A stretch of 42,167 nt of DNA from the IMG/VR virus record IMGVR_UViG_2693429605_000013, one strand, 5' to 3'. The notes under the pieces were generated by a model that ran no database searches, was not told the origin of the DNA, and was given only the letters and a program-made list of their open reading frames with translations. The position numbers and the translations under genes were made by a program. Each line of letters opens with the position of its first letter. Position 1 is the stretch's first letter. Source of the DNA: a virus. Lineage: Duplodnaviria > Heunggongvirae > Uroviricota > Caudoviricetes. Of this stretch, positions 1 to 22,057 are shown piece after piece.

Positions 1-74
1 CCCGTAACGCCTCTGCCACGCGCGTAACGTGACAGGGATTAAGGGTAAACTAATTGATTTTGCAAGTTTTTATT

Positions 75-1361
75 TTACCCTGCTTTCTTATGGGGCATAC
101 ATGGGACACTTTCAGATAGTCTTTTGTTAAGGAGTTCTATCTGTTCGTGATTGTTGTCTTTCATCCATGCTCCGTAAACATTGAATACCATTTGTGCGTT
201 TGTGTGGCCCATCTGGCTTGCGATAAAACTAGGATTAGCTCCTGCGGCAAGTGACCAGCATGCATAAGTATGCCTGGATTGGTACGATTTTCTGTGTCTC
301 AGACCTGCGCGTTTTAAGATACTTGTCCATGACTCCCTGATGGAGTCAACCTTGTAGTGAGGTCCGGACAACTGCTGCTGTTTTGTTACCTGAGGACTAA
401 AAACAAAAGTGCATTTATGCACAGCAGTTCTCCCATATTCCCTCTGCTTCACCTCTACAGAATGTTGCTTTCCAAGCATGGTCATTTCCGCCTGGCTTTT
501 AAGAGCATCAATAGCTGGTTGAACCAGATGAATTGTCCTTCCGGTGCCTGCATCGGTTTTTGGTGGAGTGAATTCGCCAAGTTTTGTATAATTTCTACGG
601 ATGGTTATAGTCCTTGCTTTAAGGTCTATATCTTCCCATGCCAGCGATACCAACTCCCCGTGACGAATACCCGTGTATACAGCGAGAATCCACAGGTTTT
701 TTGTTTGTTGATGACGGCAAGCCTCAATAAAACGAATAAATTCGTCACGGGTGAGAGGATCTGGTTTTACCTTGGACTTTTTTAAGGGAGCCAGACCGTT
801 AAATGGGTTTCCTGAGGTATAACCATTATCTGTTGCAAATTGAAACATTCCAGCTATGGTTGTCATATAGTAGTTTACCGTGACCACTGAGCGCCCTTTT
901 ATGGAAGAAGTCTTTCCATTAGAAAGCTTTTGGTAACCGGTCAACAAATCTCTCCTTACGAAAAGTAAATCCTCTTTTGTTATGGATGAAACCAGTTTTT
1001 TTTCACCTAACATTGGTAACATGTTTTTAATTACTGACTGGTAACGGTTAAGTGCATTCGCACAAATCTCAATTTTCTTAAGGTCCAACCATTTTTCCGA
1101 AAGTGCCTTAACGGTTATCTCTCTTTTTCCCAGACCAAAGTGTTTCAGGTTAGGGGAATTAGGGAACTGCGCGGCGTAGTCGAAACTCCCCATTCTGATT
1201 GCAAAACAAACGGAAGTGCGAAGTTCACCAGCGATCTTCCGGTTTTTGGCTGTGTCAGGAACACCGAGGTTTTCTCTGACACGTTTGCCATTATAGTGAA
1301 ACCATATACGGAGTGATCCTCCATGGTTTTCAACGCCTGTCGGGTATGATTCGTTACTCAT
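75..1361 (-). CDS. int: Tyrosine recombinase / phage integrase
   Basis: 428-aa ORF with a C-terminal catalytic region typical of lambda-family integrases (…RHTYACWSLAAGANPSFIASQMGHTNAQMVFNVYGAW). ATG at 1361 preceded by GGAGG. Confidence 0.9.
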   Translation of the reverse strand: MSNESYPTGVENHGGSLRIWFHYNGKRVRENLGVPDTAKNRKIAGELRTSVCFAIRMGSFDYAAQFPNSPNLKHFGLGKREITVKALSEKWLDLKKIEICANALNRYQSVIKNMLPMLGEKKLVSSITKEDLLFVRRDLLTGYQKLSNGKTSSIKGRSVVTVNYYMTTIAGMFQFATDNGYTSGNPFNGLAPLKKSKVKPDPLTRDEFIRFIEACRHQQTKNLWILAVYTGIRHGELVSLAWEDIDLKARTITIRRNYTKLGEFTPPKTDAGTGRTIHLVQPAIDALKSQAEMTMLGKQHSVEVKQREYGRTAVHKCTFVFSPQVTKQQQLSGPHYKVDSIRESWTSILKRAGLRHRKSYQSRHTYACWSLAAGANPSFIASQMGHTNAQMVFNVYGAWMKDNNHEQIELLNKRLSESVPCMPHKKAG

Positions 1362-1394
1362 TAAACCTCCCAGACGTCCAGGAGCATTAACAGG

Positions 1395-1649
1395 TTAACC
1401 GGAACTTGCATTTTTGGCACCTGGTTGTTTCTGGTTTTCGATCCATCGCATAATTTCTTCGATGTTGTACAGGCATTCACTGTAATGCCCAGGATCACCT
1501 TCTACAGCGTAATGGCGGTATTCTTTTCCCTGCATCCATGACTTTCTTCTGGCCCGCTCGATGGTGCCGGGCTTTAGCCCTGTTGATGCAATAAGGACTC
1601 TCTCCGTACACCATTTGCTGGGGGTTATCTGATAGATGATTGTCTGCAT
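1395..1649 (-). CDS. xis: Excisionase-like DNA-binding protein
   Basis: 84-aa ORF immediately upstream of int on the same strand; size and position fit a lambdoid Xis. Call is by position and size. Confidence 0.6.
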   Translation of the reverse strand: MQTIIYQITPSKWCTERVLIASTGLKPGTIERARRKSWMQGKEYRHYAVEGDPGHYSECLYNIEEIMRWIENQKQPGAKNASSG

Positions 1650-1667
1650 GCCAACCTCATAAAACTT

Positions 1668-1802
1668 TCATCCACGGCAGTGGCACCACACGTCAAACAT
1701 TCGTTTCACAACTTCACGGCAGTAGAAGCCGTCGACATCACGGGTCAGGTCGTAGCGATTGCCGAATGTCTTGCGAACCCAGAACTCAAAAGCCGTATGC
1801 AT
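1668..1802 (-). CDS. Small hypothetical protein (44 aa)
   Basis: ATG preceded by strong SD GGAGGTGA; begins 3 nt after the stop of the upstream gene. Not in the supplied ORF track (below its size cutoff). Confidence 0.35.
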   Translation of the reverse strand: MHTAFEFWVRKTFGNRYDLTRDVDGFYCREVVKRMFDVWCHCRG

Positions 1803-1805
1803 GTA

Positions 1806-2048
1806 TCACCTCCGTTGCATTGCGCGTAATTTTTTCAGGCGCATTTCCTGCTCAGTGCCCGCCAGAATTTTGCGGTACTCCTGTTGGTCAATATGTTCGA
1901 ACAGGTTGTTGAACTCACCAATGCGTACCCGTCCGGAGCGCCCGTCCATGCGTCGAAAGAACACTGAGTGCTGAGTACTGCGAGTAATCACCACAGGGTA
2001 TCCGGCTCTGTCCGTGTATATCTGACCACGTTGAATCAGAGCGAACAT
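1806..2048 (-). CDS. Hypothetical phage protein (80 aa)
   Basis: ATG start with AAGGA SD; sits in the early-left operon. Confidence 0.5.
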   Translation of the reverse strand: MFALIQRGQIYTDRAGYPVVITRSTQHSVFFRRMDGRSGRVRIGEFNNLFEHIDQQEYRKILAGTEQEMRLKKLRAMQRR

Positions 2049-2052
2049 TCCT

Positions 2053-2139
2053 TTATCCCCAGCGGAAAAGCGAATACAGAATAAATGCCACCGCTATTGC
2101 AACTCCAACTGCGGTGAATGCTTCAGGCCAATTCATCAT
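2053..2139 (-). CDS. Small hydrophobic peptide (28 aa, one predicted TM segment)
   Basis: Tandem ATG ATG preceded by GGAGGTGA; overlaps the stop of the DUF551 gene. Translation MMNWPEAFTAVGVAIAVAFILYSLFRWG. Confidence 0.3.
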   Translation of the reverse strand: MMNWPEAFTAVGVAIAVAFILYSLFRWG

Positions 2140-2792
2140 TTCACCTCCTGAGGCGGTTCTGGTAGAGGCATCCAGTGTGACGGTTTCCACGACGCACCAG
2201 GAATTATCCACCCATCATTAGCGTCAGGATGCCCCGGGATGTAAGTCGCCCATTTCATTCGCCAGTCACCTTTCCTATCAAACTCCCTGGCAACAAGAAC
2301 GGCTGTTTTGCTATCCGGCATTCGCTCACTACAGCTTATCCAACCATCCGGAGTTACCGGAGAGTTGCCCGACAGCTCGTTCAACTTGTAAGTCTGGCTT
2401 ACAGGTTCGGCACCATGAAGCATGGCTGCACGGCAGGCGTTCCATCCTCTCACCTCTGCAATAGCGGCAACAGCATCAACCGCGTACATTTTAAGAGGGT
2501 TGGGCATTGGTTTTTCTTCAGGTACTACTGGCATTGGAGGGGCGGCGTATACTTCAATAATCCCATTATCAATAGGCCATTCCCCATCCTTGATGTAGTC
2601 ACTTGTGCCATCGACCTGCTGTTCTGCAATGTGGAAAGCACCTATTGGTTTTGCTTCCAGCGATGCCAGTGCAATTTTTAATGCGGTAAGCATGTTGTTT
2701 TGATCTTCATCGAGTCCGAACGGTATTTCATCCCGTGCTGACTCAATGCTGGTAATCGTGTTCTGTAACCATTCTTTGGTAAGAGTATTCAT
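2136..2792 (-). CDS. DUF551-domain phage protein
   Basis: 218-aa ORF; C-terminal DGWI…PSHWMPLPEPP resembles the DUF551 signature common in enterobacterial prophage early regions. Confidence 0.7.
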   Translation of the reverse strand: MNTLTKEWLQNTITSIESARDEIPFGLDEDQNNMLTALKIALASLEAKPIGAFHIAEQQVDGTSDYIKDGEWPIDNGIIEVYAAPPMPVVPEEKPMPNPLKMYAVDAVAAIAEVRGWNACRAAMLHGAEPVSQTYKLNELSGNSPVTPDGWISCSERMPDSKTAVLVAREFDRKGDWRMKWATYIPGHPDANDGWIIPGASWKPSHWMPLPEPPQEVK

Positions 2793-2794
2793 AA

Positions 2795-2986
2795 CTATTT
2801 CACTTTAATCTCAATATTTCGCAGCTTTATGTCTACTGGTAGGTCTGACTTTCCTGTTAACGCTAATGCGAGATTTTCTGGAGTAATGAGAGCAGTTATT
2901 GTTTTCCCCATCGCCAGACGAATAATCAGTCGTATCTCGCGATCGTCACATGCTCCCGGTCGAACAATTGATATTTGTCCGATCAT
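2795..2986 (-). CDS. Small hypothetical phage protein (63 aa)
   Basis: Internal ATG at 2986 with AAGGAGAG SD, abutting the stop of the upstream gene. The longer track ORF 2795..3067 would overlap the upstream gene by 80 nt. Confidence 0.45.
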   Translation of the reverse strand: MIGQISIVRPGACDDREIRLIIRLAMGKTITALITPENLALALTGKSDLPVDIKLRNIEIKVK

Positions 2987-2987
2987 C

Positions 2988-3686
2988 TCACTCTCCTTTG
3001 ATGCGAATGCCTGCGGCGCGTGGCACATTAACTTCCACGATGCGCACTGTTGGTTTGTACATCTCAATCGCTGTCAACCAGTCAGCTCCTGTCATGCGCT
3101 TTTCCGCATCGCCATTAGTCCACTGAACCGGTACACCAATAGCCTTCATCGCGATTTCTATTTCCCCGGCAATGGCGCTTTTTCCGCAACCAGTAAAACC
3201 AGAAACAACGACAAGAACTTCACCTTTGGCTGGTTTTATTTCCCGTGCTTCCAGTTCTGCAATGCGCTTACTTCCATCCGAGATAACACCTTCGTAATAC
3301 TCACGCTGCTCGTTGAGTTTTGATTTTGCTGCTTCAAGCTCAACGCGCAGCTTCCCAACCGTAAGCGCAATATCCTCGTTCTCCTGGTCGCGGCGTTTGA
3401 TGTATTGCTGGTTTCTTTCCCGTTCATCCAGAAGCGCCAGCACGGTAGCTGGACTGGCTGCGGCGATGAATTCAGCGTTGGCCTGCTGTTCCATTTGGAA
3501 ATCTTCATCGAAACCGCTTTCTGGATGCGCTCCTTCAATTCTGCAAATGGGAAGATATCCAACAACTTCACGATGAATTAGTGCATCACCAGCATCAAAT
3601 CTCTCCTCTCCATATTCGAGCGACCACACACCACACGTTGCTTTTTCTGCCTTAGCACGCAGTGCCTGATAGTCAATCTTGCTCAC
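2988..3686 (-). CDS. Ead/Ea22-like phage protein
   Basis: 232-aa ORF with a central coiled-coil region and C-terminal GFTGCGKS motif, resembling lambda Ea22-family proteins. GTG start overlapping the upstream stop (GTGA). Confidence 0.65.
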   Translation of the reverse strand: MSKIDYQALRAKAEKATCGVWSLEYGEERFDAGDALIHREVVGYLPICRIEGAHPESGFDEDFQMEQQANAEFIAAASPATVLALLDERERNQQYIKRRDQENEDIALTVGKLRVELEAAKSKLNEQREYYEGVISDGSKRIAELEAREIKPAKGEVLVVVSGFTGCGKSAIAGEIEIAMKAIGVPVQWTNGDAEKRMTGADWLTAIEMYKPTVRIVEVNVPRAAGIRIKGE

Positions 3687-3922
3687 TGGTTGCCTCCTTT
3701 ACGGATCTGCGCTGCGATGCGCGAAAAAAAAGACTCCCGCGTATGACTGTTAAGAGCTGGCGCGAACGCTGCGTTAAGAACGGCAGCATCACAGCCGTCA
3801 TCGATATAGAGCGCAATTTTTTTCTCCAGGCGCGCTTTGGCTTCCTGCAACTGCATACCCCGGCACGCACGCGGGATATACTCAGCAATTTGAGCGATAG
3901 ATTTTTCGTTCTGTTTAAACAT
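3683..3922 (-). CDS. Hypothetical phage protein (79 aa)
   Basis: ATG with GAGGTGA SD; translationally coupled within the early-left operon. Confidence 0.5.
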   Translation of the reverse strand: MFKQNEKSIAQIAEYIPRACRGMQLQEAKARLEKKIALYIDDGCDAAVLNAAFAPALNSHTRESFFSRIAAQIRKGGNQ

Positions 3923-4118
3923 GCTTCACCTCGATAGGCTTGATGCTGTCGATCAGCAGTCGGCGGCGCGTATTTTCTGCAAAGTGGCGGCGTCCGGTTT
4001 CTTTGTGGTAAAACTCGTTTTTTCCGACGACCCACATCCGCTTTGTCTGGTGCAGTTTTTTTACCTGCGGACCGTCTCGGGTGATAACAATTCCTGTATG
4101 AGTTTTTATCACGCTCAT
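3915..4118 (-). CDS. Hypothetical phage protein (67 aa)
   Basis: ATG start overlapping the upstream stop (ATGA); operon context. Confidence 0.45.
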   Translation of the reverse strand: MSVIKTHTGIVITRDGPQVKKLHQTKRMWVVGKNEFYHKETGRRHFAENTRRRLLIDSIKPIEVKHV

Positions 4119-4477
4119 TTCTTATTCTCCGGTGCTTTCGGCATTACTGCCCAGTGAGTGATATTGACGTTTTCAAGGTCCCCGACCTGAAATATCCACT
4201 GCCATTCTCCGGTTTCTTTTTGTCCCCAGGTGTACCAGAGAGAACGCCAGCCAATCAGCCAGCCTTCTCCATTAGCATCAAATAACAGAACACTTTCATT
4301 TGCTGGTGGCAGTTCAGCTGACACTGGTATTATTTTGTTTTCCAGTGCCGCACATTTAGCTTCAAGCGCGTCGAATTTACGTACCAGGTACTCAGCATTT
4401 GTTTCGTTCACTTTCAGATCTCGCGGTACACATTTCCCGCGAAGAAACCCTTCCATTTCGAAAACATTCATGCGCAT
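4115..4477 (-). CDS. Hypothetical phage protein (120 aa), possibly DUF551-related
   Basis: ORF in operon; C-terminal NITHWAVMPKAPE resembles the DUF551-type tail. Confidence 0.5.
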   Translation of the reverse strand: MRMNVFEMEGFLRGKCVPRDLKVNETNAEYLVRKFDALEAKCAALENKIIPVSAELPPANESVLLFDANGEGWLIGWRSLWYTWGQKETGEWQWIFQVGDLENVNITHWAVMPKAPENKK

Positions 4478-5004
4478 TTGCGTAACTCCGATAACTCGTT
4501 AAAACGTTCCATAAACATCCCGTAGGCATGGCCCGGTGCCAGTGGAATCACGTTGAACATCTCTGTTGCCGGGATGCCTTCCAGTACAGGCCAGAAAGAG
4601 CCATCATCAAGCCCGAGATCGCGGCGTTCGGTTGCCAGCATGATGAGATCGGCATATTTCACAGGCGTGCTCATAACCGGGGGTAACCCGTATTTCTCAC
4701 GGATTACGGCGTCTATTTTTTCTTCCATCCGTTTATAGTCAGGAAGAAGGCGTTTCAGTGGTGCGGGGATGTCCTGGCAATATGCTTCTGTTGCATCATG
4801 CATTAACGCTTCAAAAGCAAATTCCTGCGGTACCAGCTGGCTGCAAAGCACCGCATGTTGGGCGACGCTGTAGAAGTGTGAAAGATGTCCTGCAAAGCGA
4901 CAGATATTTGAAAGGGAAACCGCGATATCGTTAATAACGATGTCGTCTTTATTTATCTTGTCATAATAAAAATGCTTCCCGGAAAAAGTTTTAATAAATG
5001 ACAT
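4468..5004 (-). CDS. HD-domain phosphohydrolase (YfdR-like 5'-deoxynucleotidase family)
   Basis: H…HD metal-binding signature (AQHAV…MHDATEA). Start taken as the ATG at 5004 with GGAGA SD; the track's longer ORF begins at a non-ATG codon at 5031. Confidence 0.7.
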   Translation of the reverse strand: MSFIKTFSGKHFYYDKINKDDIVINDIAVSLSNICRFAGHLSHFYSVAQHAVLCSQLVPQEFAFEALMHDATEAYCQDIPAPLKRLLPDYKRMEEKIDAVIREKYGLPPVMSTPVKYADLIMLATERRDLGLDDGSFWPVLEGIPATEMFNVIPLAPGHAYGMFMERFNELSELRKCA

Positions 5005-5131
5005 TTTGTTCTCCACGTATATGCGCTGCACCGCGCTGAATTCTGGTAAAAGGAAGCCCTCACCATCCGGCGATTATTGAGTAAATTATGTTTCCATAAA
5101 TGCCCCCGCAGGGGCATTTGCAGTAATGAAA

Positions 5132-5956
5132 TCAGGCGGTGAAAGTACCAATAAAGGTTTCTACTTTGCTGTCTTTAAATTTCTCAACAAGCAGATCACG
5201 AAATTCGTTAGCCATTTCTTCCTGCACCGCTTCCAGCTGAATAATGCGCAGAACCAGTACAGGACGATCGCCAGTGATAATGCTGAGGCGTAATTTAAAC
5301 GGACGTTCTTTCAGGCCTTCAAACGGAACGCATTTAAATTCAAATGCCACTGGCATAATGTCTTTGGTCTTCGCTTCGACAGACTCCATCAGGGAGCGTT
5401 TGCCGCTGAAGTCATTGTCTTCAAAATCAGCGGTCTGGTTCGCTTCAATTGTGATTTTACGGATCGCCGCAGCCGCTTTGGTTGCCTGAATGGCGTCACC
5501 ATTAGCATCAAAGCCCACAAGGTAGTCGGCCCAGTCTTCAATCCATTCTGCCAGTGACTTTTGGGAGTTACGCTCGCCATTAACAGACAACAGAGCAGAG
5601 AACGGTGCTGTCTTTTTCAGTTTGAGAGTGGCGGTGTTATCTGCGTGACCTGGTTCATCAATAGTACCCAGGTTAAGCACACTGACGGCACGCATATTAT
5701 CGGCATCGATAAAGCAGCGGGTGCCTTCATCTGCAAGATCTTTAGAATAACGGGTAAAGTCATCGATGCTGGCAGTGGAAAGCGCACCACGGAAACGGAA
5801 GCGATTTAAATTAAATTTTTCCAGATCATGAATGCGGAAATTCTCAGGCAATGCCACAGCATCGGCACCAATCTTACTAATAATTTCATTAACACCCTGA
5901 GCAGAAATAAGGGCATGGATTTGATTAATTGCGGTTGCGTCTAAGTTCTGAGACAT
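5132..5956 (-). CDS. DUF2303 / YfdQ-like phage protein
   Basis: 274-aa ORF with GTGAGGA SD; family assignment recalled from CPS-53-type prophages where it neighbours the HD hydrolase. Confidence 0.6.
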
Positions 5957-6021
5957 AATAAGTCCTCACTATATAAGGATATTCAGTGATGAGATAAATA
6001 ATCAGTTAATTAAGAACGATA

Positions 6022-6384
6022 TTAATGACCTGCTGCGCGGAGTTTTCCGTCAGGTTCACCGGCAAGAGTCAGTAATTGTCCCTGGTCTTCCTGCAGAATA
6101 GTCAGGCGACCACCGCGATTGACATACATCGGCGTTTCGGTGGTGTCTTCTTCGGAAATTTTCCCGCGGTTAGTCGGACGAACATATGAGAGTTTGTGTT
6201 TTATTTTCACACGGTTCTCATCAAACGGTTCGATTTCCAGGTTGAGCGAGACCTTCCCTTTGGTTTTCGTGTTCATCACACCTGAAGCGACTTCACTGAG
6301 AACAGCGCCGATTTTGGTTTCAAATACGCCGCCGTCCAGCTCCCCGATAAATGCCTGCACATCAGTACTGCGTTCGCTAGCCAT
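6022..6384 (-). CDS. Hypothetical phage protein (120 aa); first gene of the leftward operon
   Basis: Start set at the ATG at 6384 with GAGGAG SD. The track's longer N-terminal extension to 6570 runs through a region of long inverted repeats. Confidence 0.5.
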   Translation of the reverse strand: MASERSTDVQAFIGELDGGVFETKIGAVLSEVASGVMNTKTKGKVSLNLEIEPFDENRVKIKHKLSYVRPTNRGKISEEDTTETPMYVNRGGRLTILQEDQGQLLTLAGEPDGKLRAAGH

Positions 6385-6432
6385 TTTGCTGCTCCTCATC
6401 ATATCGACCCTGCAAGGTCGGTTGGTTTCTCC

Positions 6433-6566
6433 ACAAAACAGAGAAGAGCACCTGCGGTGGCAGCCGCCCGGGTGGATTGGGTTATGAGCCCGTCGTCCGG
6501 TGATGCTCTTCTCTGTTTTGTAAAAAGAGCGGTACCAGCCGGAAGCAAGTGTACAAACTGGTACCG
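6433..6566 (-). ncRNA. Candidate structured RNA leader: 18-bp perfect inverted repeat (6433-6450 / 6504-6521) plus 9-bp inverted repeat (6530-6538 / 6558-6566)
   Basis: Inverted repeats read directly from the sequence, between the putative pL region and the first leftward gene. Not followed by a U-run on either strand, so not a simple terminator. Confidence 0.3.
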
Positions 6567-6972
6567 CCAAAGCAGTGGCTGTTGTGGTGACCGGTGCTGA
6601 TCTCCGGCTTGCGGTTATTTCAGACTCTCACGGGCGTTTAATTGCCCCGCCGAACAGCTCTTTTCCGCAATAGCTGCAATGTCTTTCGCGCATCAGCCTG
6701 CGCATTCACCACAACGCTGAGAGCACTTAGCCAGTTACGGCACCACACTTTGTCGCGGTTCCATAAATGCCCTCATCGTTGCACCCTGGTCTCTTCCCAG
6801 GCGTCAAACCGAATCGCCACGCTGGTTAGGCGTCTTATCAGCATCCTCATTGACTTGCACATTCCGGCTACCTGGTTTGTTTGCCCGAGCAAGGAGTGGA
6901 TTGTCCCCTTTAACGTCCCCAGACCGCTAACGACGCATGTGCCATACGCCGTGTTACAACCAACCTTTCGTT

Positions 6973-7020
6973 AACAACAGTCTGTTGTTTGTTCAGATAA
7001 TGATGCTACTAAAAGTAGCA
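6973..7020. promoter_or_regulatory. Putative OL operator region: palindromes AACAACAG-T-CTGTTGTT (6973-6989) and TGCTACT-AAA-AGTAGCA (7004-7020)
   Basis: The second palindrome shares the core CTA…AAGTAG with the direct repeats next to cI (9379-9414). Location matches lambda OL relative to cI. Confidence 0.4.
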
Positions 7021-7255
7021 AAAATCAACAACAAAAAGTAGAAGTGTGTATTTAATTTTTAGTTTTCTATATAACGTTATGAATTAAAAGGTTTTTCACA
7101 GATGGGGTGATGTGGCGTAGTTACGTATAGAAAATATCGAGTGTCTTTTGTTTTGGTTTAATTATTAGGTTAATTAGATAGTAATAATTTGGGGGAAAAT
7201 AGTGGGAACTATGGATACAACGGGTCAGGAACAGTGTTATTAAGCAGGCTACGAG

Positions 7256-7280
7256 TATAAAACCCGACCGGTTGGTCGGG
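7256..7280 (-). terminator. Rho-independent terminator downstream of the ParA-like gene
   Basis: Perfect 7-bp stem CCCGACC/GGTCGGG with 4-nt loop, followed on the minus strand by UUUUAUAC; about 40 nt after the stop at 7317. Confidence 0.6.
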
Positions 7281-7316
7281 CGAGAATTATGTTCGTTCTA
7301 AATCATGGTTATTGTA

Positions 7317-8402
7317 TTACAGACACTTGACTACTGTTGAAACATCAGATTCTAGTGCTTCAATTTGTGCTCTATTAGCTTGGGTCGCCATACCATAGAT
7401 AGTGTAACTCTTATGCTGCAGCCTACTTAAAGGGCATCCCTCATGGTTTATTATTGCTGCAAGAGTATTACCATCTTTGACATTTTGAACTCTCTCGAAA
7501 GTAGCCACATTTGTGAACAGATGAGGATGTGTATTTAACAGGTCATCCGTGATTCTTTTGATCTCTTCTGCATGTGATTTGAATGCTTTTGCTGCATCAC
7601 TTTCATTAGTTCTTGAGCGGTTTTGTACGAAAAGGTGTAGTTCAGGTAGTTCGATAAGGTTTTGCTTTGCTTCTTTGTTGAAATCTAAGAACATTTCATC
7701 TTGTTCTGACTTGTCAATAGACACTCCATAAATAAGTTTAACAAGGTTTTTTATTCCGCGAATTGATGCAGCATCGGCAGTGCAAGGGATAATTATTCTA
7801 TTTGCCGCGACTACTCCCAATTCTGTGTAGCTGGCAAAACTTGGATTACAATCAATAAAAAATGTTTTTGCTCTGTCAGAAATGTTTTTATCGGCTTCAA
7901 AAGATGCTATTAGATCTACCAGCAAAGATCGGCTTTTCTTCCATGCTTCTTTTACTGGGGATGAGCCAATGTGAGATATTAAGCGTGAACAGATATCAAG
8001 ATCGACATCACCAGGAAGAATATATAAGTTCTCTGGCATTTTTGCATTAACATCATGGGCTCGTACAAAGTAAGAAGATTCATTTCCTAAACGAGACAAA
8101 GGAGATTTGCTAAAACGCTCCTTGATATAACCTGCGATTGTAACATTTCTGTCTCGCAATTTATTTAGATTTTCTTCCCCGGTACCATTGCCACCAAGAA
8201 TAATTTCTGAAACGTTTGATTGAGGGCATGAGTCAATAACCACAACATCTTGATCCGGATGAGATATAGCAAACTCAACGGCAAGATTATATGTAAGAAA
8301 AGTTTTTCCTACACCACCTTTGTTGTTCCATACTAAATATTTTGTATTGGTGGAAATCATATCTGCTACCCCATCTGTCGCTTCAGTACGTTCATTAATC
8401 AT
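7317..8402 (-). CDS. ParA/MinD-family deviant Walker-A ATPase with C-terminal extension; orphan gene at the rexAB-equivalent locus
   Basis: KGGVGKT deviant Walker A, VIDSCPQSN, and FFIDCNPSFA Walker-B-like motif. 361 aa (alternative ATG at 8360 gives a typical ParA N-terminus). Markedly AT-rich, in an AT-rich island between OL and cI, with its own terminator. Confidence 0.8.
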   Translation of the reverse strand: MINERTEATDGVADMISTNTKYLVWNNKGGVGKTFLTYNLAVEFAISHPDQDVVVIDSCPQSNVSEIILGGNGTGEENLNKLRDRNVTIAGYIKERFSKSPLSRLGNESSYFVRAHDVNAKMPENLYILPGDVDLDICSRLISHIGSSPVKEAWKKSRSLLVDLIASFEADKNISDRAKTFFIDCNPSFASYTELGVVAANRIIIPCTADAASIRGIKNLVKLIYGVSIDKSEQDEMFLDFNKEAKQNLIELPELHLFVQNRSRTNESDAAKAFKSHAEEIKRITDDLLNTHPHLFTNVATFERVQNVKDGNTLAAIINHEGCPLSRLQHKSYTIYGMATQANRAQIEALESDVSTVVKCL

Positions 8403-8635: not shown

Positions 8636-9376
8636 TTAAAGTCGATTATATTTAATCGACTCATGAATCAGTGCCTTACCCATAACATAAAGCTGATCTT
8701 GCGACTTCTCATCAATGTACCATTTCTCATAGGCGGGGTTATCCGAAAGAACAGCTAGTTTGTTGCCTTGCATTTGTAGACGTTTAACATGGAAAGTCTT
8801 ACCGTAAACGAAAGAGTAAACTCCATCAGTCTGGAAGTGGCGAACGGAAATGTCGACAAACAATCGATCCCCGGAAACAAGAGTTGGGGACATACTATCT
8901 CCATTTACCGTCATAACTTTTATATCATTCTGAGAACGGTTTCCGAAAAGAGAACGGGCATGTTCAGTTGTGAACTCAATGGCGTAGAGCACATCAACAT
9001 AGTCTGAAAGCATATAGGTCCCAGGTCCTGCGCTAACGCTAAGATCCAAAACTTCTATCCTGTATACATCGGGCTTTGTTGGATTGGGGATGCTTGCCAT
9101 TTCCTTACATTCCTCTCTATCTCCAACACCATATTCTAGATATGAAGCTGATACTCCAAGAGCCAACGCAAGTTTACTCATGACAGAGACACGTGGCTTC
9201 GCTGCGCCGATTGTGTATCGACGAGCCATTTCATATGTAACGCCCACAAGACTTTTGAGTTGAGTGACAGAGATTCCTTTGATTGTCATCAATTCGTTTA
9301 GTCTCTTGGCGAAATCTGGATACTTCTGTTCTTCTACCATAGGTAGAAGATTACTCACATCACACGCGCTAGTCAT
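8636..9376 (-). CDS. CI-like prophage repressor (HTH XRE domain + LexA/S24 peptidase-like domain)
   Basis: N-terminal HTH (…IKGISVTQLKSLVGVTYEMARRY…) and C-terminal S24-like autocleavage domain (…VNGDSMSPTL…HVKRL…). Start taken at ATG 9376 (alternative ATG 9340); no SD, consistent with a leaderless PRM-type transcript. Track start at 9397 is TTG. Confidence 0.85.
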   Translation of the reverse strand: MTSACDVSNLLPMVEEQKYPDFAKRLNELMTIKGISVTQLKSLVGVTYEMARRYTIGAAKPRVSVMSKLALALGVSASYLEYGVGDREECKEMASIPNPTKPDVYRIEVLDLSVSAGPGTYMLSDYVDVLYAIEFTTEHARSLFGNRSQNDIKVMTVNGDSMSPTLVSGDRLFVDISVRHFQTDGVYSFVYGKTFHVKRLQMQGNKLAVLSDNPAYEKWYIDEKSQDQLYVMGKALIHESIKYNRL

Positions 9377-9378
9377 TT

Positions 9379-9438
9379 CTATTTTAAGTAGTTGCAATTT
9401 GCTATTTTAAGTAGCATCATCCCTCTGAATTTCAGAGG
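9379..9438. promoter_or_regulatory. Putative OR/PR-PRM operator region: two direct copies of CTATTTTAAGTAG (9379-9391, 9402-9414) and a perfect palindrome CCTCTGAA-T-TTCAGAGG (9422-9438)
   Basis: Repeats read directly from the sequence in the 70-bp divergent intergenic region between cI and cro; the palindrome overlaps the cro SD. Confidence 0.5.
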
Positions 9439-9446
9439 AGAAAGGT

Positions 9447-9710
9447 ATGTCATCTCAAAACTACACAGAGAAAGCAGTAAAGGCTGCGGGAAAGTCTTTA
9501 TCTGAAGTAGCCCGTCGCTTTGGTTTTAAGTCCACTCAATCCGTCGCCAATTGGGTAATTAACAATCAAGTCCCGTCAGAACGGGTTTTACAACTTTGTG
9601 AGTTGGGAAACTGGTCCGTGACCCCTCATGAACTGCGTCCTGATATTTACCCCAATCCAAATGATGGATTACCTGAGTGCTATTCAAAAGTTAGCGGTTC
9701 AACTGCGTAA
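9447..9710 (+). CDS. cro: Cro-like HTH regulator (YdaS-like)
   Basis: 87-aa ORF divergent from cI with AGGAGAAAGG SD and an HTH-like region (…SLSEVARRFGFKSTQSVANWV…). Confidence 0.7.
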   Translation: MSSQNYTEKAVKAAGKSLSEVARRFGFKSTQSVANWVINNQVPSERVLQLCELGNWSVTPHELRPDIYPNPNDGLPECYSKVSGSTA

Positions 9711-9738: not shown

Positions 9739-10323
9739 GTGGGTAAAGAACCTGAATGGAAAGTTGATAAGCAACCAGCATGGCTGGTGGCAGCAATACG
9801 AAGAACGATTGCTGATTTACCTCATGGCTATGAGGAAGCAGCGGAAATTCTTGGTTTGTATAAATCTGATGATATCACCCCAGCGAAAGATCAATTGCAT
9901 AACAGACTGCGTAGCGGTGGGGATCAAATTTTTCCACTTGAGTGGGCCATGGTTTTACAGGATGCCAGTGGTACCAGGCATGTAACGGATGCGATAGCGC
10001 GTCGTAGTAATGGGGTGTTTGTGCCGCTGGTGGACATTGATGACATTGACAATGGTGACATTAATCAGCGGCTGATGGAGTCAATAGAATGGATTGGCAA
10101 GCATTCCCAGTACTTACGCAAGGCAACTGCTGATGGAGTTATTGACCAGGCTGAGCGTGAGCAAATCGAAGAGAACAGCTACCAAGTAATGGCGAAGTGG
10201 CAGGAGCATTTAACACTGTTATTTCGTGTTTTTTGTGCGCCGGAAAAGAGTAACGCCCGCGAGTGTGCAGCTCCGGGCGTCGTGGCGTCGATTGCTTCTG
10301 GTTGTGGAGAAACTAACGCATGA
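9739..10323 (+). CDS. CII-like / YdaT-family regulatory protein
   Basis: 194-aa ORF directly downstream of cro (the cII position); GTG start with GAGG SD. Family assignment is by position and size. Confidence 0.45.
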
Positions 10324-15821: not shown

Positions 15822-15838
15822 TTTTGTGGAGAAAGTTG

Positions 15839-16180
15839 ATGCGTGATATGTATGAAGTATTGGACCGCTGGGGTGCATGGGCTGCAGCAGATAACAGTGG
15901 TGTGGACTGGCAGCCTGTTGCTGCAGGGTTTAAAGGTTTACTACCTCATGGAAAGAAAACACGCCAACAATGCGATGATGATGAAGGAATCATGATTGAC
16001 AGCTGTGTTGCGCGATTGCGGAAATATAAGCCCGAAGAGTATGAGTTGGTTATTGCTCATTTTGTTATCGGCATCTCACTAAGAACTATTGCAAAGAAGC
16101 AGAAGTGTTCTGATGGGACAATAAGAAAAGAGTTGCAAACAGCTCTTGGTTTTCTGGATGGTGTGCTTTCAATGTTGTAA
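15839..16180 (+). CDS. Q-like late-gene antitermination protein (short form with sigma-70 region-4-like HTH)
   Basis: Position immediately upstream of the late region; C-terminal HTH-like segment (…ELVIAHFVIGISLRTIAKKQKCSDGTIRKELQ…). ATG at 15839 with GGAG SD. Confidence 0.55.
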   Translation: MRDMYEVLDRWGAWAAADNSGVDWQPVAAGFKGLLPHGKKTRQQCDDDEGIMIDSCVARLRKYKPEEYELVIAHFVIGISLRTIAKKQKCSDGTIRKELQTALGFLDGVLSML

Positions 16181-18170: not shown

Positions 18171-18246
18171 GGCCCTTTAGCTCAGTGGTGAGAGCGAGCG
18201 ACTCATAATCGCCAGGTCGCTGGTTCAAATCCAGCAAGGGCCACCA
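18171..18246 (+). tRNA. ileZ: tRNA with CAT anticodon, most similar to tRNA-Ile2 (lysidine type; ileZ-like)
   Basis: Cloverleaf read by hand: acceptor GGCCCTT/AAGGGCC, anticodon loop CTCATAA, T-loop GGTTCAAATCC, 3' CCA. Near-identical to E. coli tRNA-Ile2 as recalled. Confidence 0.85.
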
Positions 18247-18253
18247 TCACATA

Positions 18254-18330
18254 CCGCCATTAGCTCATCGGGATAGAGCGTCAGCCTTCGAAGCTGGCTG
18301 TGCGGGGTTCAAGTCCCCGATGGCGGTCCA
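18254..18330 (+). tRNA. argN: tRNA-Arg (anticodon TCG by manual fold), C1-G72 acceptor end
   Basis: Acceptor CCGCCAT/ATGGCGG, D-arm GCTC…GAGC, anticodon stem TCAGC/GCTGG with loop CTTCGAA, T-loop GGTTCAAGTCC, 3' CCA. Anticodon assignment depends on the hand fold. Confidence 0.75.
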
Positions 18331-18343
18331 TTATCAGCATCAT

Positions 18344-18420
18344 GCGTTGTTAGCTCAGTCGGACAGAGCAATTGCCTTCTAAGCAATCGGTCACTGGTTC
18401 GAATCCAGTACAACGCGCCA
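18344..18420 (+). tRNA. argO: tRNA-Arg (anticodon TCT)
   Basis: Acceptor GCGTTGT/ACAACGC, anticodon loop CTTCTAA, T-loop GGTTCGAATCC, 3' CCA. Confidence 0.85.
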
Positions 18421-19782: not shown

Positions 19783-19961
19783 TTTTTTTATTTGCTGTTT
19801 ATTAAAAACACTTCTGCATGGTGAATCCCCCTGTGCGGAGGGGCGACTGGTGTAGGTAGCATTTATTATGTTATAGGCAAGCCGACGCGGGTTCAGTGAC
19901 ACCGGCTGAATTCACCGGGAGGCACCCGGCACCATGCAAGAAAAAGAATGTGCATGCAAAC

Positions 19962-19991
19962 ATGCCCCTCTCCGGAGGGGCATTTTTTATG
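19962..19991 (+). terminator. Rho-independent terminator (ATGCCCCTC-TCCG-GAGGGGCAT plus T6)
   Basis: Perfect 9-bp stem followed by TTTTTTAT. Immediately followed by a second hairpin (GCCCGAA-TGGGT-TTCGGGC, 19998-20020) preceded by an A-run, which would terminate minus-strand transcripts. Confidence 0.65.
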
Positions 19992-20115
19992 GGTAAAAAA
20001 TGCCCGAATGGGTTCGGGCAATAGCATGAGATACTGATATTGTTGTGTTGTTATCGTGTGGATTTTAACCAGGGTTTATCAGGCTGCGCAACTGCGTGGC
20101 CTTTTTTCATTTCTT

Positions 20116-20160
20116 GGGCTGTAGTCCCCGTGTGTCATTCAGGCTTCCGGACTACAGCCC
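20116..20160 (+). promoter_or_regulatory. 12-bp perfect inverted repeat GGGCTGTAGTCC…GGACTACAGCCC with 21-nt loop, 43 nt upstream of the esterase start
   Basis: Read directly from the sequence; lies in the 5' leader of the 617-aa esterase gene. Confidence 0.4.
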
Positions 20161-20203
20161 ACTCCATATCTGATTTAATACACTATCCCGGCCGGGAGGA
20201 ATA

Positions 20204-22057
20204 ATGACATTTAAACATTATGATGTTGTCAGGGCGGCGTCGCCGTCAGACCTTGCGGAAAAGCTGACACACAAACTGAAAGAGGGCTGGCAGCCGTTTG
20301 GTAGTCCGGTGGCCATAACCCCTTATACCCTGATGCAGGCGATTACAGCAGAAGGTGATGTGGTGGTCAGTGGTGCAACTGAGCCGGATTGGTACTACGT
20401 CATCGTACTGGCCGGGCAGTCCAATGCCATGGCTTACGGTGAAGGGCTTCCGCTGCCGGATTCATACGATGCTCCGGATCCGCGCATTAAACAGCTGGCG
20501 CGCCGCAGTACAGTTACGCCGGGTGGGGCTGCCTGCAGATATAACGATATTATTCCGGCCGACCACTGCCTGCATGATGTGCAGGATATGAGTACGCTGA
20601 ATCATCCGAAGGCAGACCTGAGCAAAGGGCAGTACGGCTGTGTCGGCCAGGGCTTACATATTGCCAAAAAACTGCTCCCGTATATCCCGAATAACGCGGG
20701 GATCCTGCTGGTACCATGCTGTCGTGGTGGTTCTGCATTCACCCAGGGCGCTGAGGGGACATTCAGTGCGGACACGGGGGCCAGCCAGGATTCGGCACGC
20801 TGGGGTGTGGGTAAACCGTTATATCAGGACCTGATTGCGCGCACTAAAGCTGCATTACAGAAGAACCCGAAAAATGTGTTGCTGGCGGTGTGCTGGATGC
20901 AGGGAGAGTTTGACATGAGCGCCGCCACCCACGCACAGCAACCTGCGCTGTTTACAGCCATGCTGACACAGTTTCGTGCTGACCTCTCCGTGTTTAACGC
21001 GCAGTGCCATGGTGGCAGTGCTGCAGATGTGCCGTGGATTTGTGGTGACACGACGTATTACTGGAAAAATACATACGCTACCCAGTACGACACCGTGTAC
21101 GGCGGGTATAAAAACAGGGAGAGTGAGGGCGTTTATTTTGTGCCCTTCATGACAGACGGTAACGGCGTCAATACCGCCACTAACGCGCCGGCAGAAGATC
21201 CGGATATTCCGGCATCAGGATATTACGGTGCGGCATCGAGAACGAATGGAAACCAGGTATCATCAAACCGCCCGACACATTTCAGTTCATGGGCGCGCAG
21301 GAGCATTATTCCGGATCGTCTGGCAACCGCTATTCTGAACGCAGCCGGGCGCACCTCAGCCTTCATCAGTGGTAAGGCACCGGAAATCAAACCCTCGCCC
21401 GGCGGCAACACGCCATCGGGTCCGTTTGCAGATACGTCCGTTCGCACAATCTCCCTGCTGCCGGCAGCCGGAGAGGCTGCTGCGCAGGGCTGGAGCATTA
21501 AGGATGGCGGAATTCAGTTGTCAGATGGTGTATTTAAGATCACCAAGCAGAGCAATAAAACCTGGTCCCTGACGCATCCGGTGGATGACGCAATTACCCT
21601 GCTGACACAGGGCGGCAGACTGACCTGTAAGTTCCGCCTGTCAGGCGCACTGACCAACAATCAGTTCGGGCTGGGGATTTATCTGTATACGGATGCTCCC
21701 GTTCCTGATGGTGTGGCGATGACGGGTACCGGTAATCCGTTCCTGATGTCGTACTTCACTCAGACCACTGACGGCAGAGTGAATCTGATGCATCACAGGA
21801 AAGCCGGAAACACGAAGCTGGGGGAGTTCGGCGATTACGGTAACGACTGGCAGACGCTGGAGCTGGTGTTCACCGCCGGCAGTGCCACGGTTACTCCGAA
21901 ACTGAATGGAGTGGCTGGCCCGGCATTCCAGGTTATAAAAGACAGTCTGACACTGGGACTGAATGCGCTGACGCTGACGGATGTTACAAAAAATGCAGCG
22001 TATGGCGTTGAGATAGAAAGTCTGGTGCTGGAGATAAATGCACCGGCATCATCATAA
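20204..22057 (+). CDS. Prophage-encoded sialate O-acetylesterase, NanS-p type (DUF1737 N-terminal domain + SASA/SGNH esterase domain)
   Basis: [14 protein letters not shown] matches the GQSN catalytic block of SASA-family esterases; N-terminal MTFKHYDVV…EGWQPFGSP resembles DUF1737. Sits between the tRNAs and the holin, as in Stx phages. ATG with GGGAGGA SD. Confidence 0.8.

Follow-up and report, generated by a model that had tools for sequence, protein, structure and literature searches.

RESULTS

Organization of the leftward early leader

The window is the whole 42,167-nt stretch of Caudoviricetes DNA in IMG/VR record IMGVR_UViG_2693429605_000013. Its leftward early region contains the following features, listed in the direction of transcription.

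7006-7018 and 7029-7041, minus strand (context 7000-7041): OL operator-like repeats CTACTTTTAGTAG, matching the OR repeats
7000-7005, minus strand: -10-like CATCAT of the putative pL, with a predicted start near 6993
6523-6716, minus strand: sRNA-17, a published 193-nt prophage sRNA
6522-6568, minus strand: intrinsic terminator of sRNA-17 (stem 6558-6568 with 6528-6538, loop 6539-6557, tail 6528-6522)
6427-6526, minus strand: Y-shaped post-terminator leader RNA (the Y-element), about 100 nt, described by covariance model R1
6392-6397, minus strand: Shine-Dalgarno sequence GAGGAG of the yfdP-like gene
6022-6384, minus strand: yfdP/sb37-like gene, the first early-left gene, with its ATG at 6382-6384

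The operator-like repeat of OL is also found in OR, at 9379-9391 and 9402-9414 between the cI-like and cro-like genes. A TTG...-N17-CATCAT layout is common to OL/pL and OR (12 matches versus 5.2 expected). The assignment of pL is putative and comes from reading the sequence. The initial annotation had described two inverted repeats between OL/pL and the first leftward gene, and this placement was correct. Its 18-bp perfect repeat (6433-6450/6504-6521) was recovered in a repeat search as the core of 25-nt arms (6433-6457/6497-6521) that are 88% complementary. Its 9-bp repeat (6530-6538/6558-6566) is also present and is really a perfect 10-bp repeat (6529-6538/6558-6567), which a G·U pair (6568/6528) extends to 11 bp. 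The two repeats had been treated as one element, which they are not: the small repeat is a simple terminator at the mapped 3' end of sRNA-17. The interval comprises two separate parts of the untranslated leader, about 600 nt long, of the leftward (minus-strand) early transcript.

Minus-strand RNA from 6385 to 6600 folded with a free energy of -89.2 kcal/mol (z = -5.4), and none of 200 shuffles was equally stable. Both hairpins appeared in the MFE and centroid folds. Pairing in the large and small repeats is conserved with compensatory changes in relatives and is therefore far above chance. The folding and covariance checks suggested with the initial annotation thus recovered both hairpins, and its central proposal, that the leader of the leftward early operon carries a conserved, structured, cis-encoded RNA, held.

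A Rho-independent terminator ends sRNA-17

sRNA-17 was described in Escherichia coli K1 RS218 as an sRNA of an mEp460-type prophage, detected by Northern blotting and with its 3' end determined by RACE (PMC7719688). It was placed on the window by means of its published primers and probe: in Table S2 of that study, the primers for the full-length RNA, the probe for Northern blotting and the primers for RACE all matched 6523-6716 with 0 mismatches and the expected polarity. The 5' end of sRNA-17, GUUGUGGUGA (6715-6706), pairs with UCACCACAAC (6590-6581) to form a closing helix, which was found as an inverted repeat in the repeat search.

The initial annotation stated that neither repeat is followed by a U-run. 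This is true of the large hairpin and untrue of the small one, which on the transcribed (minus) strand is directly followed by UCUUUUUAC (6528-6520). Its 11-bp stem and 19-nt loop lead into the tail UCUUUUU, and the published RACE 3' end of sRNA-17 corresponds to position 6523, in the U-run. A simple terminator scanner misses this hairpin because the 19-nt loop exceeds the scanner's limit of 8. The stem covaries among relatives (GGCGGUACC/GGUACCGCC, GUCGGCGUC/GACGCCGAC and GCGGCAUC/GAUGCCGC), and all 56 distinct homologous upstream sequences have a GC-rich hairpin of 11 to 22 pairs located 1 to 2 nt before a run of 4 to 8 U. These data establish 6522-6568 as a Rho-independent terminator that ends sRNA-17. 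The Shine-Dalgarno sequence plus AUG present in the terminator loop of some relatives was dismissed as part of an extended bipartite hairpin. An ops/RfaH reading was likewise dismissed by eye: GGCGGTA in the terminator stem fits 7 of 12 ops positions, and the rest are absent.

In the lysogen, this terminator silences the early-left operon (yfdP/Q/R ... xis, int). In RNA-seq of a lysogen carrying a near-identical prophage, which is not the present strain, yfdP had 0.49 reads and yfdR had 0. The published account of sRNA-17 concerns the same locus, and the 3' end of sRNA-17 is our small hairpin. That account describes neither the terminator as such nor the large hairpin, which begins 1 nt past the sRNA-17 3' end. 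Our data correct the picture of sRNA-17 to that of the terminated leader of a phage operon, and therefore sRNA-17 deletions likely act in cis on yfdP and yfdR. In an sRNA-17 deletion mutant yfdP rises, an observation whose interpretation hinges on the state of the resistance cassette.

sRNA-17 is a diverged relative of STnc100 and PasD

In SfV, ST64B and e14, the RNA that precedes the large hairpin aligns with STnc100 over its full length, terminator included. The closing helix (G/C)AUGGUG...CACCA is common to these RNAs and STnc100, as is the CCGGGAGGCACCCGG hairpin. Against the Rfam STnc100 family (RF02076), for which the gathering score is 47, the homologues from SfV, ST64B and e14 scored 39.5, 35.1 and 29.2 bits, respectively, and sRNA-17 of the window gave no match at an E value of ≤10. 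sRNA-17 is a relative of STnc100 but not a member by the Rfam rule. A bona fide STnc100 lies elsewhere in the window, at 19790-19994 (Rfam). STnc100 and PasD sit near Q and the late genes, whereas the sRNA-17 copy sits in the pL leader; sRNA-17 is a promoter-proximal, diverged STnc100/PasD-type RNA.

The large hairpin is a conserved Y-shaped RNA

The Y-element and its flanks consist of the following parts, in 5'-to-3' order.

6502-6521, minus strand: 5' arm of P1, ACAAAACAGAGAAGAGCAUC, starting at the first base after the terminator U-tract
6468-6500, minus strand: P2 arm, with the helix CCGGA/(C)CCGG plus a G-C pair
6474-6494, minus strand: invariant P2 tip GACGGGCUCAUAACCCAAUCC, which holds GGG-CUCAUAA-CCC (6479-6491)
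6454-6467, minus strand: P3 hairpin GCGG-CUGCCA-CCGC, whose length and sequence differ among relatives
6433-6452, minus strand: 3' arm of P1, GGUGCUCUUCUCUGUUUUGU, which pairs with 6502-6521
6421-6432, minus strand: single-stranded tail GUGGAGAAACCAAC, a motif that overlaps the P1 end
6405-6420, minus strand: P4, a small GC hairpin (CGACC-UUGCAG-GGUCG) seen in the fold between the tail and the ribosome-binding site

In an alignment of 29 diverse sequences, 93.9% of cells were paired, versus 35 to 53% after the partners were slid. Both-side changes occurred at 13 pairs, compared with 6.7 ± 1.3 in shuffles (0/500), and the covariation score was 0.212 versus 0.100. P1 contains 20 pairs (20 to 25 bp), with 94.3% of cells paired and both-side changes at 6 pairs. 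A U·G pair at alignment columns 30/109 is kept in 23 of the 29 sequences, and a conserved C·C or C·U mismatch is present at the center of P1 in 22, including most variants from outside E. coli. Both sides had changed at 4 of 6 pairs in P2 and at 3 of 4 in P3. In relatives, P3 has inserts of up to 27 nt and its loop is often (C/A)UUCCUAA; in one locus (L169) P3 is swapped for an unrelated hairpin. The tail is kept in all relatives, even the hairpin-less L013 and L047, and the position of P4 is occupied by GGCGG-UGGCA-GCCGCC and similar hairpins.

The G·U wobbles are compatible with the minus strand alone, which fixes the Y-element as a minus-strand RNA. Model R1 gave 115 bits (E = 1e-29) for the minus strand and 50 bits for the plus strand, and this was its sole match in the window. 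Rfam 15 was searched with the window at the gathering threshold and with 5900-7400 at an E value of ≤10, as the initial annotation had recommended. Within the interval only noise was returned, and the large hairpin matches no family. These data establish the structure, strand and conservation of the Y-element, and we conclude that the large hairpin is a leader RNA of Y shape that is widely conserved and has not been described before.

We also considered that the conserved unit is not an RNA but a small protein gene, or a palindrome that acts as DNA (a protein-binding site or MITE). The region does contain a 49-aa open reading frame on the minus strand (6399-6548) and a 47-aa frame on the plus strand (6457-6600), the latter annotated in mEp460, and frames here are called hypothetical proteins in some records. 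Relatives have elements of 100 to 131 nt, whose lengths do not differ in steps of three, and U-runs of 4 to 8, and with such changes in length no frame is preserved. The small frames were rejected for this inconsistency, and the substitutions in the stems are compensatory. Against a DNA palindrome, the G·U wobbles occur on one strand only, A·C pairs are absent from P1, and each prophage has a single copy, at a syntenic position. We therefore give these readings almost no weight.

An invariant core flanked by a P1 and P3 of variable length is the typical pattern of a riboswitch-like aptamer, in which the three-way junction, conserved at junction and loop nucleotides and variable in its outer stems, would sense a ligand or protein and control the adjacent ribosome-binding region. 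However, no expression platform is recognizable, and in the folds neither P4 nor the Shine-Dalgarno sequence is mutually exclusive with P1. Riboswitch matches were absent from the Rfam results and no candidate ligand is known, and an aptamer is very unlikely.

The Y-element is shared among operons with different first genes

The 236-bp region from 6385 to 6620 matched 2,914 of 5,426 complete E. coli genomes, 1,367 of which contain ≥80% of it. The Y-element is also found in prophages of Shigella, Salmonella, Klebsiella, Citrobacter and other Enterobacterales, Stx-converting phages included. Its distribution is modular. At least four kinds of first early-left gene stand behind it (yfdP-like, RdgC-like, yfdR and xis); in one relative (L148) it directly follows the promoter, and in another (L047) it precedes an STnc100-like RNA. 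The P2 core recurs in other lambdoid phages between a tR'-like terminator and holin genes. There the Q gene, a promoter and the terminator precede the core, holin genes of three families follow it, and P1 is only 5 bp. The window's own late leader (20081-20161) has a terminator, then a long hairpin, then the first gene.

This placement bears on a fail-safe silencer, which would render unmodified read-through transcripts unproductive, for example through Rho acting on the C-rich P2 tip CUCAUAACCCAAUCCACCC or through a block to first-cistron initiation, and which a termination-resistant polymerase (Q in late operons, some device at pL) would ignore. The element is always found directly between a promoter-proximal terminator and genes that would harm a lysogen (xis in e14, holins in late operons), the lysogen shows next to no expression of the downstream genes, and the tip is rich in C and poor in G. 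Unlike rut sites, however, the C-rich stretch is short and lies within structure, and such phages have no known pL antiterminator. We consider silencing of this kind rather unlikely.

The P2 tip resembles the anticodon arm of initiator tRNA

The 21-nt P2 tip matches the anticodon arm of E. coli tRNA-fMet (positions 26 to 42) at 16 of 17 positions, with a score of 29 versus 13.3 ± 2.0 in shuffles (0/500). The pairing register of P2 is kept amid unrelated flanks (CUGUCU/GGGCAG, CUACCU/GGGUAG and GGCGGC/GCCGCC). ARAGORN identified no tRNA at the Y-element in seven relatives, and the Rfam tRNA matches in the window were confined to 18171-18417. A tRNA-like gene was rejected on the ARAGORN result; the copy is limited to the anticodon arm.

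The P2 tip may instead be a functional replica of the anticodon arm of initiator tRNA, possibly derived from a tRNA-fMet gene, at the head of post-terminator operons. Such a copy would engage a reader of tRNA-fMet, be it the P site of the 30S subunit with IF3, MetRS, or an anticodon nuclease such as the toxin VapC. It would work either by gating the first cistron as a translational operator or by acting as decoy or sensor for tRNA-targeting defence. The match covers three G-C pairs plus the CUCAUAA loop, and the tip is unchanged across lineages in which P1, P3 and the flanks differ. In the late context, AAUCCGG after a 16-nt gap matches the tRNA T-arm, which suggests descent from a tRNA gene, and such leaders commonly carry tRNA genes (as in L023 and at 18171-18417 of the window). 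The thrS operator likewise places a copy of a tRNA anticodon arm in a leader hairpin. Nevertheless, of the 5 pairs in the stem of the tRNA arm, P2 can make only 3; the loop of some relatives reads CUCAUUC or CUCAUUA, which puts a pyrimidine in place of the conserved purine 37; and ARAGORN sees no tRNA-like gene. In addition, a single copy per transcript would be a weak decoy, and the resemblance was spotted post hoc. Mimicry of the initiator tRNA is unlikely on this evidence.

The structured immunity RNAs c4 of phage P1 and CI of phage P4 are processed from the leader of the operon that they control. An antisense role of this type was rejected, as complements of the P2 tip elsewhere in the window were limited to Shine-Dalgarno-type purine runs and to matches at chance level. 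By eye, the P2 and P3 loops showed no convincing or covarying complementarity to the downstream ribosome-binding region, and the Rfam c4 family had no match in the window.

The Y-element is neither an HK022-type put site nor a nut site

Like the Y-element, the putL and putR RNAs of HK022 are structured, act in cis and lie close to the promoter in the early leader of a lambdoid phage that lacks N, and put-like antitermination was one function suggested in the initial annotation. This suggestion failed on similarity to HK022, on copy number and on position relative to terminators. Model R1 found nothing in the HK022 pL and pR regions, and a blastn comparison of the complete window leader with those of HK022 gave only E values of >1. 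A 9-mer near pL that is shared with HK022 (CATGCGTCG) was discounted as chance (12 matches versus 12.1 expected). The model detected no second copy in the window, the pR leader included. HK022 put is a pair of short stem-loops, together about 70 nt, which is present at pL and again at pR and precedes the terminators that it suppresses, whereas the Y-element is a single 100-nt Y shape of unlike sequence, present on the left side only and downstream of the leader's only strong terminator.

The absence of an N-like open reading frame from the interval, noted initially, was borne out by the frame list and by Pfam, neither of which gave an N match, and no conventional N gene or nut site was found. 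A boxA-like UGCUCUU is present but base-paired within P1, and a 15-nt boxB-type hairpin is absent from the leader sequence and its folds. The Y-element is thus not an HK022-type put site and not a nut site. PADLOC returned no match for the ParA-like gene and two further accessory genes.

The Y-element could still resemble put in function rather than sequence, binding RNA polymerase so that it resists downstream terminators or Rho across the left operon. It lies near the promoter in a lambdoid phage without N, it occurs irrespective of which gene comes next, it directly follows the promoter in L148, and put-like RNA has already been speculated in related N-less phages (PMC12315714). Yet the HK022 leaders are unlike it, and there is one copy, with none in the pR leader. 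The element also lies past the sole strong terminator of the leader, while a terminator scan of the tightly packed left operon (minus strand, 1-6400) gave weak consensus matches only, and in the late context Q already antiterminates. Polymerase modification by the Y-element is quite unlikely.

DISCUSSION

The reading that we favor, with somewhat less than even confidence, is a leader built of a terminator plus the Y-element, in which the Y-element would act in cis on read-through transcripts. It begins just past the U-tract and stops about 30 nt short of the Shine-Dalgarno sequence, so that read-through transcripts alone contain it. A processing site, the alternative offered in the initial annotation, is in our inference the most plausible role for the large hairpin. 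The P1 duplex (20 to 25 bp) is long enough to serve as an RNase III substrate. Cleavage there would free the mRNA of the sRNA/terminator part and define its 5' end, which in turn could influence mRNA stability and translation. The invariant P2 tip would be a recognition site for some factor. RNase III accommodates about 22 bp (PMC6212723). With an 18-bp perfect core that can be extended to 25 bp, P1 reaches the size, about 20 to 22 bp or more, of an RNase III substrate.

Processing at P1 does not account for the whole family. The long duplex is not kept family-wide, given the short P1 of the late variants and the central mismatch in 22 of 29 early-left variants. Because P1 is just 5 bp in late operons, the long duplex cannot be the universal function, and because the late-operon version keeps P2 alone, P2 must carry the core function. 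RNase III leaves the invariant 21-nt P2 tip unexplained.

The proposed arrangement has counterparts in the known RNase III sites of lambda tI/sib, the lambda N-leader hairpin and the metY-rimP leader of E. coli, in each of which a long leader duplex adjoins a terminator or a small stable RNA gene. The complete site is therefore formed only in extended transcripts. The long hairpin after the tRNA in the metY leader was confirmed in the sequence. By analogy with these systems, P1 may be an RNase III site. None of the three has sequence homology with the Y-element except for the tRNA-like 17-mer, and the conserved P2 tip has no counterpart in them. Capture of the host metY-rimP leader was rejected, the 17-nt anticodon-arm match being all that the two have in common.

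The Y-element sits where the expression of excision and recombination genes or, in relatives, lysis genes is decided. It offers a concrete mutational handle on early-left control in N-less phages of the SfV, ST64B, e14 and mEp460 types. That handle is a defined RNA, supported by covariation and carrying an invariant tRNA-like tip.

The leader of the leftward operon

The window is a lambdoid prophage, and the surroundings of both hairpins match E. coli O145:H28 RM12761 at 100% identity. The features of its early region and of sRNA-17 are as follows.

6022-6384: first leftward gene, yfdP/sb37-like, followed by DUF2303/yfdQ and yfdR
6523-6716 (-): sRNA-17, placed by the primers and probe of PMC7719688
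7006-7018 and 7029-7041: operator-like repeats in an AT-rich stretch, matching the OR repeats at 9379-9391 and 9402-9414
7262-7281: terminator of the ParA/MinD-like gene
7317-8402 (-): accessory gene for a ParA/MinD-like ATPase (361 aa), next leftward from cI
8636-9397 (-): cI-like repressor, S24 peptidase type
9447-9710: cro-like gene
9739-10323: CII-like gene
15824-16180: Q (PF06530)

The 7006-7041 region shares a TTG..-N17-CATCAT layout with OR, and we read it as a putative OL/pL with a predicted transcription start at ~6993. The ~600 nt separating this start from the yfdP/sb37-like gene contain no credible ORF, in agreement with the leader location proposed in the initial annotation. The leader block shares 98.8% identity with phage mEp460, and 2914 of the 5426 complete E. 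coli genomes hold matches to a 236-bp stretch spanning both hairpins (6385-6620). The ParA/MinD-like gene occupies the rexAB position, between cI and the putative OL/pL, and PADLOC gives no match for it. This gene is absent from mEp460, since the mEp460 repressor gene lies only ~136 bp from the conserved leader block.

The small hairpin is the terminator of sRNA-17

A repeat search found both inverted repeats where they had been described, and folding of the minus strand gave just these two hairpins in the MFE and centroid structures (-89.2 kcal/mol, z = -5.4). The further claim that neither repeat is followed by a U-run can stand only for the large hairpin, since the small hairpin (6522-6568, -) ends GGCGGUACCAG-(19 nt)-CUGGUACCGC-UCUUUUUAC on the transcribed strand. 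sRNA-17, a 193-nt RNA, was mapped by 5'/3' RACE in an mEp460-type prophage of E. coli K1 RS218 (PMC7719688, 2020). Table S2 of that paper lists full-length primers, a Northern probe, RACE primers and deletion arms; all have 0 mismatches to the window, and the primers and probe place the 3' end of the RNA within the U-tract that follows the small hairpin. This hairpin is a known terminator, that of sRNA-17. A GC-rich hairpin of 11 to 22 pairs, with compensatory stem variants, is present in 56 distinct homologous sequences, followed by 1 or 2 nt and then 4 to 8 U.

In the RS218 lysogen, yfdP had 0.49 reads and yfdR 0 reads, and sRNA-17 was visible on Northern blots (PMC7719688); the terminator therefore works in vivo. 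The strongest "targets" in the sRNA-17 deletion mutant were yfdP (log2 6.6) and yfdR (PMC7719688, Table 1), which are the genes immediately 3' of sRNA-17, in cis. This is more suggestive of a polar or cis effect on the leader than of regulation in trans. Many relatives outside E. coli (e.g., L011 2290-2360, L026 and L003, which is ST64B) carry a bipartite form of the sRNA terminator hairpin, ~61 to 65 nt, in which the internal segment GAUGAAGAUA(A/G)UGUUCUG is conserved and the apical loop holds GGAGGA; in E. coli versions the loop is a simple one of 19 nt.

sRNA-17 and the STnc100/PasD group

By sequence, sRNA-17 is a relative, diverged and mosaic, of the STnc100/PasD group, the subject of a 2026 preprint, because the RNAs ending at the homologous terminator in SfV, ST64B and e14 align full-length, at sub-threshold scores, with Rfam STnc100, and because STnc100 itself is found in the window. 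The features of the late-gene leader are as follows.

19790-19994 (+): bona fide STnc100 (155.8 bits)
19995-20056 (-): AgvB (96.5 bits), back to back with STnc100
20081-20108 (+): intrinsic terminator (GGCUGCGCAACUGCGUGGCC then U6), resembling the tR'-like terminator of loci L162 and L169
20115-20161 (+): 13-bp hairpin, 7 nt past the terminator; the first late gene follows, with its ATG at 20205

The STnc100 promoter/start (TTTATTAAAAACACTTCTGCATGGTG) resembles the promoter-proximal sequence 3' of Q in other phages (L163, L167 and L168), which suggests that STnc100 may be the terminated transcript of the late promoter.

The 3' part of sRNA-17 (6580-6640) has 86 to 98% matches to short stretches of many unrelated phages, including P1-like phage-plasmids near plp, ~47-kb Klebsiella phages and an Aeromonas phage; these are probably additional members of the STnc100/PasD superfamily. 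The 5' boundary of sRNA-17, AAGUGCUCUCAGCGUUGUGGUGAA (6700-6727, -), repeats, in direct orientation and diverged form, the 3' arm of P1 plus its tail, AGGUGCUCUUCUCUGUUUUGUGGAGAA (6427-6455, -). Both copies contain a boxA-like UGCUCU and a boxC-like UGUGG, and UCACCACAA (6590-6582) is able to pair with either (repeats D2, I7 and I8).

A conserved RNA structure in the large hairpin

The large hairpin, here called the Y-element (6427-6526, -), was collected from phages SfV, ST64B, phiNP, mEp460 and Kp4866-6, K-12 e14, IMG/VR contigs and 31 GTDB loci located via the yfdP-like protein, whose named hosts include Mangrovibacter, Enterobacter, Kosakonia, Phytobacter, Leclercia and Providencia. The set holds 51 distinct versions. 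When 29 diverse versions are aligned, four helices emerge: P1 (20 pairs), P2 (five plus one), a 3-bp apical stem and P3 (4 pairs). Paired cells amount to 93.9%, compared with 35 to 53% when the 3' partners are slid by 1 to 3 columns. Thirteen pairs changed on both sides (6.7 ± 1.3 in shuffles; 0/500), the covariation score was 0.212 versus 0.100, and RNAalifold recovered P1 and P3 unaided. These data establish the fold and its conservation.

A DNA palindrome is ruled out: all wobbles are G.U when read as the minus strand (one U.G is retained in 23 of 29), P1 contains no A.C pairs in this alignment, and with the covariance model the minus strand reaches 115 bits and the plus strand 50 bits. ORFs annotated at the Y-element in some records were also excluded, since length differences are not multiples of three and the U-run is not of constant length. 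The Y-element is thus a conserved structured RNA of the leftward transcript. No Rfam family matches it, and no description was found in the literature searched.

P1 begins at the first base past the terminator U-tract, and the Y-element is present only in read-through RNA. Mid-P1, a C.C or C.U mismatch is conserved in 22 of 29 versions (most non-E. coli versions); the window copy is fully paired there. P3 is variable, with inserts of up to 27 nt and a loop that is frequently UUCCUAA, and has been swapped outright in one lineage.

The Y-element is a module of post-terminator leaders

The first gene 3' of the Y-element varies (yfdP-like, RdgC-like, yfdR or xis). Its neighbors vary as well: one locus (L148) has the promoter/operator region and then the Y-element, with sRNA and terminator absent; another (L047) has the Y-element 5' of an STnc100-like RNA; and a third (L013) carries the sRNA together with the conserved tail GUGGAGAA, terminator and hairpin both being absent. 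In 12 IMG/VR contigs the P2 core, joined to a P1 of only 5 bp, lies ~120 nt 5' of the lysis cassette. On its 5' side are a Q gene (PF03589 or PF06323), an STnc100-like promoter/start and an intrinsic terminator, and on its 3' side are holins of families PF16083, PF16931 and PF16080 with their endolysins. Therefore, the Y-element is a module of untranslated leaders just past the promoter-proximal terminator, early-left here and in the Q-dependent late operon elsewhere. The late leader of the window is laid out in the same way, in a sequence that is unrelated.

In K-12 e14 (L002 3002-4017), ymfH spans the Y-element and STnc100-like RNA. The homologous non-coding leader lies under ymfH, and probably under ymfI as well, so both annotations are likely spurious ORFs. 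In a Phytobacter prophage (L023 2222-2300; also L028), a tRNA-Ile gene (anticodon AAU) lies in the early-left leader, with the sRNA-type terminator and then the Y-element just 3' of it. This leader thus carries tRNA genes as cargo, as do late leaders (window tRNAs, 18171-18417).

The P2 tip resembles initiator tRNA

The closing helix of P2 covaries and keeps its register in unrelated backgrounds (CCGGA/UCCGG, CUGUCU/GGGCAG, CUACCU/GGGUAG and GGCGGC/GCCGCC). Its tip is invariant.

6474-6494: invariant P2 tip, GACGGGCUCAUAACCCAAUCC

Within the tip, CGACGGGCUCAUAACCC matches positions 26 to 42 of E. coli initiator tRNA, checked against metZWV and metY, at 16 of 17 positions, taking in three G-C pairs and the CUCAUAA loop (alignment score, 29 versus 13.3 ± 2.0 for shuffles; 0/500). 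In e14 this loop is altered to UUAAUAA. In a second phage group a gap of 16 nt is followed by renewed matching, at the T-arm sequence AAUCCGG, which hints that the core may have descended from a tRNA-fMet gene. The Y-element as a tRNA gene was rejected; that it serves as a tRNA-fMet mimic or decoy, as the match might invite, is unlikely. The invariant tip must presumably be recognized by some partner, and we consider it very unlikely that the Y-element is an aptamer.

The Y-element is not an HK022-type put or a nut site

The initial annotation raised put-like antitermination. Neither the covariance model nor blastn matched the pL and pR leaders of HK022, whose put sites are antiterminator RNA stem-loops. 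The window has one copy, with none in the pR leader, and that copy lies 3' of the only strong terminator in the leader; in the left operon (1-6400, -) the terminator scan reports weak consensus matches only. An HK022-type put was rejected, and a processive antiterminator of any kind is quite unlikely. A nut site was rejected too: neither an N gene nor a boxB hairpin was found, and UGCUCUU, which is boxA-like, is taken up in the pairing of P1. For the related N-less phage LLS, the authors of a 2025 paper only speculate on put-like control (PMC12315714).

A separate conserved element, AACAGGCAGGACGCCCACGAAGUAGCCGCC-hairpin-GGGAUGAUUCGC, lies directly 3' of pL in phages of the SfV, e14, ST64B and phiNP type (SfV, L006 ~3400-3470; ST64B, L003 ~3090-3160; L005, L002 and L047 9790-9860). 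Its stem covaries (CCCGG/CCGGG, CCGGU/ACCGG and CCUGG/CCAGG). It is found in neither the window nor mEp460, and may be the true site of antitermination or loading in those phages.

Possible action and meaning

In its order (small stable RNA, terminator, long duplex, mRNA) the arrangement resembles lambda tI/sib and the metY-rimP leader, at both of which RNase III acts. P1 of the window (18 bp perfect, extendable to 25 bp) falls within the size that RNase III accommodates, ~22 bp (PMC6212723). Because of this size and layout, the most likely action of the Y-element would be processing or setting the fate of read-through transcripts. RNase III cannot be the whole explanation, since late-operon versions without a long P1 and the tRNA-like invariant tip are left unexplained. 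A Rho or translation fail-safe has a small but real chance of being the function instead.

Both hairpins are real and of more interest than a mere hairpin pair. Half of the finding, the sRNA-17 part, was already published; the large hairpin is an undescribed and very widespread phage leader RNA.
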